Origin: Escherichia coli phage Shin27
Length of the DNA stretch: 64,000 nt
Reading direction: 5' to 3' (one strand)
Sequence record: LC788709.1
A model generated the notes under the pieces. It saw only the letters and a program-made list of their open reading frames with translations, was not told the origin of the DNA and ran no database searches. A program made the position numbers and the translations under genes. Below, in pieces: positions 55,002 to 59,926 of the stretch (positions within the stretch are counted from its first letter, which is position 1; each line of letters opens with the position of its first letter).

Positions 55002-55397
55002 TTAGTCGTAGCACCACCATAACCCACGCTTACGCAGATCATGATCGCGATTATAGTCGTAATTTTCTGGATCTTTCATCACACGATGAAGTTCGCGACG
55101 GTTTCCCTGACGAACCATTTTGTTAGAATGCCACTTAACATTCCTACTAACAGAATCCCACCAGTGCCCATCTTTCTTCTCGTTACGGATGATATTTTCC
55201 TGAATCTCCTTCTCAATTTCATCCCAAGTTTTAGCCCATGCTTCATTGGATCGAACTTGATAATACTTCCACTGCTTACCCTCCCTATCCGTGTAGGTAT
55301 ACGGAATACGGATATTAGTGCTATGAAAATTATAAGTAGAACGATGTGCATCACGCCAGTGACGATCACCAGATTGTTTACGATATGTACGGCTCAT
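55002..55397 (-). CDS. hypothetical basic protein
   Basis: 131-aa Arg/Lys/Trp-rich ORF. Confidence 0.5.
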   Translation of the reverse strand: MSRTYRKQSGDRHWRDAHRSTYNFHSTNIRIPYTYTDREGKQWKYYQVRSNEAWAKTWDEIEKEIQENIIRNEKKDGHWWDSVSRNVKWHSNKMVRQGNRRELHRVMKDPENYDYNRDHDLRKRGLWWCYD

Positions 55398-56086: not shown

Positions 56087-56455
56087 TTATATCGCCTGAG
56101 TAAATGTACGACTAATAACGTCGTTCTGTTGTTCACGCGTCAATGCGTTAAATCGAACAGCATAGCCAGAGACACGGATGGTCAACTGAGGATATTTTTC
56201 AGGATGTTTCTGTGCATCCAAAAGCTGATCACGGCTTAACACATTGACATTTAGGTGCTGACCACCCTCGACTTGAGGAACCACTTCCACATCTACAATG
56301 CGAAAGGCCTCAGGGTCAAAGTGAGGTGTGATACCTTCTAGATCTTCGACTAGAACTTTCTGTTTAAGTTCACCATCTTTAGAATATAGTTGAATGATCT
56401 GATTGTTATGAACAATGTTAATTACGCCAGACTTAAGACTTTGATATGCTTTCAT
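56087..56455 (-). CDS. grcA: autonomous glycyl-radical cofactor (GrcA/YfiD-like)
   Basis: 122-aa ORF. The C-terminal ~70 aa are near-identical in pattern to E. coli GrcA as recalled: [12 protein letters not shown]...[32 protein letters not shown]. Confidence 0.85.
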
Positions 56456-56820
56456 TAGATCTCCCTGATGTTAGAATTTGGCTCAGCTTTTTGTTAACCC
56501 AGAAGCAAGATAAAAACTGGAAGGCAGGCTTGCTTATTAAGTGAATACCCGATAATCGCTCGTAGTCCGGCTTGTGGATTGATAGTCCCATTCAGTTTAA
56601 TAAGCACAGGAGCTTTGATTTTAACGTTGCGATCTTCCAGGTCTGTTGCAACTACGTGATTGCTCACGCTAAGACAATGGCTATCTAAAGTCTTAGCTTC
56701 TACATTTATACTCCTGGATAGCATGGAGTTGCAGTCTACTTCCTGCTGTCACGCCCGGCCATTTATAGAATGTGGACTCTCTTCTCAGCAGGATCTGGTA
56801 CAATGACCTGATCCTCTGTT

Positions 56821-56896
56821 TGGTAGTTAGTAGTGGATTTGAACCACTGTAGTCGCTCCGTATGAAGGAGGTGCATAACCACTCTGCCAACTAACT
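56821..56896 (-). tRNA. tRNA, anticodon CAU (Met or Ile2 type)
   Basis: Acceptor AGTTAGT/ACTAACT, T-arm AGTGG-TTCAAAT-CCACT, anticodon loop TTCATAC, A73, CCA encoded. Confidence 0.7.
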
Positions 56897-56902
56897 ATAA
56901 TT

Positions 56903-56978
56903 TGGTACTCCGACTTGGGATCGAACCAAGATTTGACGATTATCGGTCGCCTGTTCTAACCGTTTGAACTATCGGAGC
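56903..56978 (-). tRNA. tRNA-Ile (GAU) with C at position 33
   Basis: Acceptor GCTCCGA/TCGGAGT, anticodon arm GGCGA-CCGATAA-TCGTC, T-arm CTTGG-TTCGATC-CCAAG, CCA encoded. Confidence 0.7.
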
Positions 56979-56979
56979 A

Positions 56980-57273
56980 TTACATCATTTCGTCTAAGTA
57001 AGAAGTATACTGGTATTTAGCTTCTCCAGTTTTATCTACTTCGACTTCTGTTCTAGGTACTTTTCGTACCAGACCGTGAATCATCTTGTACTGAATAGAC
57101 TTAGATGGTTCGTGATCTTTTGGAAATACTTGTTTAACCGTTACTACTTTGAAGCCTTCACGAGGTGTTAGCACAACAACTTGATCACCTTCTTTTATTT
57201 TCCAAGACTCAGGAAATTCGTAAGTGTAGCGTTGACCACCCGTTTGGAACACGACAGAAAGATAACGTTTCAT
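56980..57273 (-). CDS. hypothetical protein
   Basis: 97-aa ORF, the first gene behind the promoter at 57304-57332. tRNAs lie downstream. Confidence 0.55.
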   Translation of the reverse strand: MKRYLSVVFQTGGQRYTYEFPESWKIKEGDQVVVLTPREGFKVVTVKQVFPKDHEPSKSIQYKMIHGLVRKVPRTEVEVDKTGEAKYQYTSYLDEMM

Positions 57274-57303: not shown

Positions 57304-57332
57304 ATTATAACAAGAAATAAGAGAGAAGGCAA
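57304..57332 (-). promoter_or_regulatory. T5 early-type sigma70 promoter
   Basis: TTGCCT, 17 nt, TATAAT, then leader ...AAATTAATGAGAGGGAA. Confidence 0.6.
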
Positions 57333-57907: not shown

Positions 57908-57983
57908 TGGCTGGAGAAGGAGGAATCGAACCTACCATTAACGGAGTCAAAGGCCGTTGTGCTAACCGTTACACTACTCTCCA
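57908..57983 (-). tRNA. tRNA-Gln (UUG)
   Basis: Acceptor TGGAGAG/TTCTCCA with U1-A72, G73, loop CTTTGAC, T-loop TTCGATT, CCA encoded. Confidence 0.8.
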
Positions 57984-57989
57984 AGTATT

Positions 57990-58065
57990 TGGCTGGGATG
58001 CCACGGATCGAACGTGGAACCTTCGGAGTCAGAGGCCGACGATCTGCCAATTGATCTACATCCCA
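57990..58065 (-). tRNA. tRNA-Gln (CUG)
   Basis: Acceptor TGGGATG/CATCCCA with U1-A72, G73, loop CTCTGAC, T-arm CCACG-TTCGATC-CGTGG, CCA encoded. Confidence 0.8.
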
Positions 58066-59766: not shown

Positions 59767-59842
59767 TGGTGGAGTCACTCAGAATTGAACTGAGTTCCAC
59801 TGCTTGCAAGGCAGTAAGTTTAACCAAATAACCTATGACCCC
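59767..59842 (-). tRNA. tRNA-Ala (UGC)
   Basis: Acceptor GGGGTCA/TGACTCC with G3-U70, A73, arm ACTGC-CTTGCAA-GCAGT, T-arm CTCAG-TTCAATT-CTGAG, CCA encoded. Confidence 0.8.
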
Positions 59843-59847
59843 GAATT

Positions 59848-59926
59848 TGGTGGAGAATAAGAGATTCGAACTCTTCTGATATCCTCGGTGCAAGCGAGGT
59901 GTCCACTCCAAGCAGACCCATTCCCC
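59848..59926 (-). tRNA. atypical tRNA, anticodon read as UGC (Ala-like)
   Basis: 79 nt. Acceptor GGGGAAT/ATTCTCC with G3-U70, arm CCTCG-CTTGCAC-CGAGG, T-arm AAGAG-TTCGAAT-CTCTT, CCA encoded. It has G at position 8, an enlarged D loop and a longer variable region. Confidence 0.5.

Follow-up and report, generated by a model that had tools for sequence, protein, structure and literature searches.

Escherichia coli phage Shin27 (LC788709.1) carries, at positions 56087..56455 on the − strand of the 64,000-nt stretch analysed here (hereafter, the window), a gene for a small GrcA-like protein that most likely serves to restore the oxygen-damaged pyruvate formate-lyase (PFL) of the host, a reading built on sequence comparison and on analogy with characterised relatives and to which we give a probability of about 0.8. 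Phages T4 and T5 are already known to carry members of this gene family, and the window adds no new kind of system; the finding is itself already known, since the same protein has been deposited and annotated and the function of its T4 homologue was demonstrated in 2001. Indeed, the T5 gene has carried an annotation ever since the T5 genome was deposited, and the principle goes back to that same work on T4 Y06I. On this reading, virulent phages of enterobacteria, Vibrio and Aeromonas (about 1,580 records) would carry a repair part for a central fermentation enzyme of their hosts, which would make the gene a clear case of phage adaptation to habitats poor in oxygen, the gut among them.

Gene Prediction and Selection

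The ORF list of the window contains an intact reading frame of 122 codons plus stop at 56087..56455 (− strand), with an ATG start, and the C-terminal sequence quoted for this ORF in the original prediction is found there to the letter. A Shine–Dalgarno element (AGGGAGA, 56460..56466, − strand), read directly from the letters, lies 5 nt ahead of the ATG; in the alignment with T5, the same element, AGGAGATCTAATG, precedes T5.056, the T5 orthologue. Three parts, all coded on the − strand, can be distinguished in the protein: an N-terminal module of residues 1–41 (56333..56455), predicted to form a beta meander and kept within T5-like phages; a linker of residues 42–61 (56273..56332), delimited by its variation among T5-type sequences; and a glycyl-radical domain of residues 62–122 (56090..56272), delimited by Pfam and structure matches. 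In this last part, an exact RVSGYAV motif occupies residues 94–100 (56156..56176, − strand), and its glycine, G97 (56165..56167, − strand), is the counterpart of PflB G734 and GrcA G102.

The gene is real and functional. Compared with the T5 gene, dN/dS is 0.058 overall at a dS of 0.58, with values of 0.087 for residues 1–61 and 0.026 for residues 62–122; dN/dS being low in each half, both halves are under strong purifying selection. The gene of phage beppo shows two differences from that of the window, both of them synonymous.

The Glycyl-Radical Domain

The Pfam family Gly_radical (PF01228) matches residues 62–103 with 66.3 bits (E=4.1e-18), far above the cut-off of the model (22.2 bits), and no second Pfam domain is found in the protein; together with the exact motif, this bears out the GrcA/YfiD radical-domain pattern, RVSGYAV included, that the original prediction had recognised. 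Against solved structures, the best match is E. coli GrcA/YfiD (6owr, E=2.2e-29, query residues 50–121), with PflB (1h16) at E=1.6e-26; other glycyl-radical enzymes are far weaker, those of the PflD/YbiW type reaching an E-value of about 1e-12 vs 1e-26. The top Foldseek matches of the window protein are YfiD (6owr) and PFL (2pfl). Alignment with the host proteins, as suggested along with the original prediction, gives 49/61 identical C-domain residues for E. coli GrcA and 47/61 for PflB, and TdcE reaches 52/61 (77–85% over the three proteins), with 29 of its 31 final residues identical to those of the window protein. Twenty-five residues follow the radical glycine in each case (G97/122 here, G734/759 in PflB, G102/127 in GrcA), and the window protein keeps all the 35 alignment columns that are invariant across 50 phage and bacterial homologues. 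The host DNA counterparts of the 3′ half of the gene are pflB, tdcE, and grcA, with an identity of about 75% in every E. coli genome; for the 5′ half, there is no host match.

The window protein is small and stand-alone (proteins of this kind measure about 115–130 aa) and is devoid of the catalytic barrel of glycyl-radical enzymes. PflB and TdcE, enzymes of about 760 aa, have the same RVSGYAV loop and an equal spacing between glycine and C-terminus but possess a barrel of roughly 700 residues, with Cys418/Cys419, that is absent here; lacking this barrel, the window protein is no enzyme on its own.

Position 82, the codon of which lies at 56210–56212 of the window, is occupied by Gln in the phage lineage, whereas bacterial proteins have Val, Met, or Ile. 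Phage-type N-termini almost always pair with this Gln (…DAQ/EAQ…), and bacterial GrcA, PflB, and TdcE show either one of these three residues or Ala at the same position. Such a signature suggests that the window copy and most other phage copies belong to a long-standing phage lineage of radical domains. In four metagenomic or bacterial GrcA-like proteins, an enterobacterial GrcA N-half is joined to a PflB-like C-domain (MNREMLLDAME…QQQDVITRTFTQSM); from their sequences, these hybrids look like the product of bacterial gene conversion between grcA and pflB.

The Linker and the N-Terminal Half

The end of the linker (residues 50–61) aligns with GrcA residues 53–66, the pre-domain segment YREVPVEVKPEV; this GrcA-specific segment is common to bacterial GrcA and the window protein, and PflB has no counterpart of it. 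The direct alignment with E. coli GrcA covers residues 51–122 only, with no direct similarity in the first 48 residues. Over 33 distinct T5-type sequences, 7 of the first 41 positions are variable, compared with 14–16 positions in residues 42–59 and 8 in residues 62–122. AlphaFold2 predicts four or five beta strands in the N-module (residues 2–6, 12–16, 19–26, and 29–36) with a pLDDT of 85–95 (about 90). A phmmer search with residues 1–58 against 1.84 billion proteins returned its own family (a truncated member) and a single PPR-repeat match; this 869-aa protein (E=2e-6, summed over 5 repeats) was judged spurious, as it consists of a helical repeat whereas the N-module is predicted to be a beta domain.

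According to the original prediction, the N-terminal stretch of about 50 residues was unrelated to the host protein; this holds in direct searches, but profile comparisons that pass through intermediates link it weakly to GrcA. With hhalign, the T5-type N-terminus does not match the bacterial GrcA N-terminus (E=0.33); T5-type N-termini, including that of the window protein, match T4-type ones and those of other phages weakly, at E=6e-4 to 3e-3; and the T4-type and bacterial N-termini match at E=1e-3 with a strict phage-only set, a value that becomes 1e-14 once intermediate sequences are included. One has to keep in mind that our first hhalign run, which gave a probability of 98%, had bacterial-like intermediates in its set, and that support fell with the strict phage-only set. 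Column permutations gave z = 3.4 and 5.4, the best of 200 permutations still being above the observed scores. A joint alignment of the N-termini yields a plausible continuum, in which Q5 is invariant and R52 nearly so (18-sequence sample), and about 7 extra residues of the T5 type (GELKQKV) are aligned as an insertion. The N-region equals that of GrcA in length and position. These comparisons are suggestive of an N-terminal half that would be a strongly diverged counterpart of the GrcA N-half and not an unrelated addition.

Comparison with T4 Y06I and Bacterial GrcA

Bacterial GrcA/YfiD (P68066; 6owr; TIGR04365) is, like the window protein, stand-alone, with a length of about 125 aa and a radical domain that is 80% identical to that of the window. 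The two differ in the N-half: the first 60 residues of YfiD are disordered in solution by NMR (PMC8683613), while AlphaFold2 models the T5-type N-half confidently (pLDDT 90) as a beta domain. Disordered as they are, these residues are required for YfiD to bind cleaved PFL measurably and for activation to be efficient (PMC8683613). The N-terminal half is also the reason why the NCBIfam cut-offs for GrcA are missed: the equivalog model TIGR04365 scores 118.3 bits against a cut-off of 170, NF038360 (GrcA3) scores 116 vs 158 bits, and NF008341 (GrcA2) 90.1 vs 145, the matches being confined to residues 54–122. By the rule of NCBI, the window protein is accordingly no equivalog of bacterial GrcA. 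Judged on its sequence, the window protein is structurally of the GrcA/Y06I kind.

Vs.6 of phage T4 (AF158101, 63557–63919), called Y06I in the literature, has the same two-part build (120 vs 122 aa), begins with MKAYQ like the window protein, and is 51% identical to it from end to end; it lacks the GELKQKV residues of the T5 type. Y06I and E. coli YfiD are described as “spare parts” of about 14 kDa, in which the PFL-activating enzyme installs a glycyl radical; once activated, they associate with oxygen-cleaved PFL in a complex that regains activity (PMC8683613, which cites Wagner et al. 2001). The two are the sole validated examples of spare parts (PMC8683613). In addition, the radical of GrcA G102 is passed to PflB C419, and GrcA rescues the PflB G734A variant in vivo (PMC12338860).

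The radical domain of T4 Y06I is, however, nearly that of host GrcA (59/61 residues, compared with 49/61 for the T5 type), and the 3′ half of vs.6 (nt 179–363) has 98.4% DNA identity to the grcA gene of all 5,426 complete E. coli genomes. This indicates that the T4 radical domain was recently replaced by host sequence, and the host-derived domain explains why T4 is without the Gln82 signature. T4 Y06I is the sole phage protein tested, its radical domain is essentially derived from the host, and the T5-type lineage is a diverged one. The T4 protein is, thus, a poor proxy for the T5-type radical domain: its C-domain being essentially the host’s own, the behaviour of Y06I transfers less directly to the T5-type domain. 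By analogy, the window protein is still expected to act as T4 Y06I does, being activated by the host’s PflA and rescuing PFL that oxygen has cleaved.

Relatives, Distribution, and Database Labels

The match to phrog_1209 is full-length (residues 1–122 on profile positions 1–121 of 121, E=7.2e-47). T5.056 is 94% identical to the window protein and lies at the same site, beside tRNA-Met at the edge of the tRNA cluster and behind promoter P11; five of the seven amino-acid differences between the two fall in the linker (residues 50–59). The proteins of phages Stitch, Sw2, and UTK0010, as well as beppo_127 (deposited as “glycyl radical cofactor”), are 100% identical to that of the window. By tblastn, homologues were found in 1,583 phage records, their carriers being T5-like and T4-like phages, jumbo phages (RaK2, K64-1, and fHe-Yen9), and Vibrio and Aeromonas phages; at an identity of at least 80%, the gene is present in 439 records, compared with 444 records matching the locus, and copies that are identical or nearly so carry annotations in hundreds of phage genomes. 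Our searches of the literature returned nothing on the T5-type protein, nor on grcA as an auxiliary metabolic gene of phages, and no phage phenotype is reported for a GrcA-like gene in the searchable literature.

Deposited names for these homologues are inconsistent: “pyruvate formate-lyase”, “2-ketobutyrate formate-lyase”, “ribonucleotide reductase subunit”, “acetyltransferase-related protein”, and “autonomous glycyl radical cofactor” are all in use, and the first four of these labels are wrong for many records. An identity as pyruvate or 2-ketobutyrate formate-lyase was rejected for the window protein, as TIGR01255 is matched at positions 683–743 of 744 only, with 84 bits vs a cut-off of 994. 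In Citrobacter phage YZU-L1 (OQ570641.1), the match begins at residue 23, and the gene is annotated as a 67-aa “ribonucleotide reductase subunit” with a start inside the linker; this could be either an N-terminal disruption or an annotation artefact.

Probable Client Enzyme and Possible Benefit to the Phage

The likeness of the C-domain to PflB, TdcE, and GrcA, with none to NrdD, designates a client of the PFL type, namely PflB and possibly TdcE. The RVSGYAV heptapeptide is the substrate of PflA, and with this loop unchanged in the window protein, the activase is presumably host PflA. We propose that a host-type promoter drives early expression of the gene during infection and that PflA, a radical-SAM enzyme of the host, would recognise the RVSGYAV loop and put the radical on Gly97; the C-domain would then take the site of the radical domain in PflB (probably also in its paralogue TdcE) when the enzyme is cut at Gly734 by oxygen or radical-less, after which the radical would be handed from the seated C-domain to Cys419. 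The N-module may help docking onto damaged PFL, a role known for the N-half of E. coli GrcA. Only for E. coli GrcA and T4 Y06I has it been demonstrated that PflA activates the protein and that cleaved PFL is rescued, and we infer both for the window protein by analogy.

PFL yields acetyl-CoA, which leads to ATP via acetate kinase, and formate. Once restored, it would allow fermentative ATP production to continue and would supply formate, which serves as reductant for anaerobic ribonucleotide reductases of the NrdD type, like that encoded by these phages; both the benefit to the phage and the link between formate and NrdD are what we infer from these properties. Mulliez et al. are said to have reported, in 1995, formate as the reductant of the class III enzymes of E. 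coli and T4. More generally, class III ribonucleotide reductases are described as able to use formate directly as reductant (PMC5704485). T5-like phages encode NrdD, and at an identity of at least 80% to the T5 enzyme, it is present in about 391 records vs 439 for the GrcA-like gene; overall, NrdD is the commoner of the two, with 2,920 records vs 1,583. The similar numbers of records, which are the only quantity compared, are compatible with a functional link and are no demonstration of it. In the neighbourhood of nrdD, no activase gene is annotated in T5 or in gmork (Epseptimavirus), and the ORF that follows nrdD in T5 (T5.100, 126 aa) has no Pfam match; both glycyl-radical proteins of the phage may depend on host activases.

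Alternative Explanations

The original prediction had seen in this gene an auxiliary spare part for a glycyl-radical enzyme at low oxygen and had named two possible clients, a host enzyme and an anaerobic ribonucleotide reductase of the phage; homology and the biochemistry of T4 Y06I favour the first, and the absence of similarity to NrdD speaks against the second. NrdD is likewise cleaved by oxygen at its radical glycine, and a spare radical domain for the phage’s own enzyme could be imagined from its presence in T5-like phages, from the match of both proteins to Pfam Gly_radical, and from the GenBank records that say “ribonucleotide reductase subunit”. BLASTP against T5 NrdD, however, finds nothing (E=15), T5 NrdD keeps a complete Gly_radical domain of its own, and the window C-domain has its 77–85% identity to PflB, TdcE, and GrcA; moreover, NCBIfam ranks the GrcA and PFL models first, with no NrdD model in the NCBIfam or Pfam results. 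NrdD also has a different radical-loop motif and a zinc-binding C-terminal domain, the latter being absent from the window protein. The lack of similarity to T5 NrdD and of any NrdD model rules out that the protein is itself a class III ribonucleotide reductase, and we consider it most improbable that it is a spare part for one. A main client in the host other than PflB is easier to conceive, although still improbable: TdcE (2-ketobutyrate formate-lyase) has the closest C-domain of the host proteins (52/61 overall and 29/31 at the end), the PFL-like PflD/YbiW could also be considered, and GrcA-like repair of other glycyl-radical enzymes has been raised as a possibility (PMC8683613). Yet the C-domain differences between PflB, TdcE, and GrcA are few and give no basis for specificity, and the PflD/YbiW type, as seen above, scores much lower. 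PflB is, in addition, by far the most abundant of the PFL-type enzymes in fermenting enterobacteria.

Another possibility is that the protein harms the PFL system rather than repairing it, acting as a decoy or inhibitor that would sequester PflA or block PFL and, thereby, shut down the formate and acetyl-CoA metabolism of the host; phage early genes often disable host functions, and the T5-type N-module, for which a fold is predicted, is unlike that of GrcA. A blocker would, however, have no need for the radical glycine and all the other invariant positions, on which purifying selection is very strong; PFL activity is restored by the T4 homologue (PMC8683613); and phages with a reductase of the formate-using type would be expected to profit from formate. 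Such a role appears, on balance, distinctly improbable. As for a functionless, decaying remnant of the 3′ end of a captured host pflB, tdcE, or grcA, as the DNA identity of about 75% between the 3′ half and these genes and the frequent label “pyruvate formate-lyase” might suggest, it is refuted by the pattern of conservation and has next to no chance of being correct: the ORF is intact and preceded by a Shine–Dalgarno element, dN/dS remains at 0.058 for a dS of 0.58, about 440 T5-like records, and about 1,580 phage records in all, retain the gene, and the phage-specific N-half is under purifying selection as well.

Repair of host PFL, thus, remains our preferred reading, and within it, the N-module leaves room for a variant. 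Strongly conserved in its clade, predicted to be folded, and with no relatives detectable outside the family, this module might, as a rather unlikely option, confer a recognition unlike that of GrcA, for instance of intact or radical-less PflB/TdcE with no need for prior cleavage. If recognition did differ in this way, the phage would take over pyruvate flux and assure its own NrdD of formate, both of its glycyl-radical proteins being dependent on host activases. If this were true, the Gln82 phage lineage and the replacement by a host gene in T4 would reflect long-term selection on this function across phages.

Genomic Setting

The 2 kb around the gene are 98–99% identical to the corresponding DNA of E. 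coli phage Wa28, Salmonella phages S116 and 1-23, and others; beppo, the annotated relative, is an Epseptimavirus (Demerecviridae, T5-like), and the window likewise belongs to a T5-like phage of this genus. The gene is located at the edge of a large tRNA cluster, with 21 tRNAs in the window (ARAGORN, Rfam). Upstream in the orientation of the gene and on the same − strand, tRNA-Met (56821–56896) and tRNA-Ile (56903–56978), both found by ARAGORN and Rfam, are probably co-transcribed with it, and the 97-aa orthologue of T5.058 (56980..57273, − strand; 84% identical; phrog_4760) is presumed to be the first gene of the transcription unit. The gene order in T5 is identical (T5.058, tRNA-Ile, tRNA-Met, T5.056). 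A promoter scan detected a candidate sigma-70-type promoter at 57304..57332 on the − strand (TTGCCT, 17-nt spacer, TATAAT, extended TG; score of 10/12), and the T5 record gives the corresponding stretch, 96% identical in DNA, as promoter P11; this points to early transcription by the host RNA polymerase, together with the tRNAs.

Alignment with T5 and beppo delimits a 365-nt spacer (56456..56820, − strand) that separates the gene from tRNA-Met. Of its length, about 354 nt are an insertion that T5 lacks, together with the small ORF contained in it (56494–56724, − strand; phrog_19031, E=4e-32); in T5, the Shine–Dalgarno element of the gene directly follows tRNA-Met. No RNA family was matched in these 365 nt. 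In beppo, another 234 nt are inserted at the same site, with an ORF of 64 aa, and the spacer appears, from these sequences, to be a hot spot for the insertion of small genes. On the 3′ side of the gene, a simple scan of the − strand found no intrinsic terminator. The neighbouring small ORFs (99, 61, 97, and 131 aa) belong only to families of unknown function, with no functional link to the GrcA-like gene; the 131-aa ORF, two genes downstream (55002–55397, − strand), is a conserved phage protein of unknown function with a full-length match to Pfam DUF7295 (E=4e-60) and to phrog_5021.

Adjacent duplicates are found among the tRNAs of the cluster, with two tRNA-Ala(TGC) at 59767–59926 and a tRNA-Gln pair (TTG, CTG) at 57908–58065; the tRNA-Ala at 59848–59926 is detected by ARAGORN and falls below the Rfam gathering score. 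At a larger scale, positions 190–31000 of the window hold late structural genes, with large ORFs that include some of 1016, 685, 949, and 1235 aa; these are followed by ORFs of 244 and 554 aa, which we guess, from their size and from the sizes of T5 genes only, to be T5 dmp and A1, and then by an early region (38000–64000) with lysis genes, a dNMP kinase, and the tRNAs. With this run from late to early genes and the presumed dmp and A1 in between, the contig looks permuted when set against the T5 reference, and its terminal repeat would lie in an internal position.
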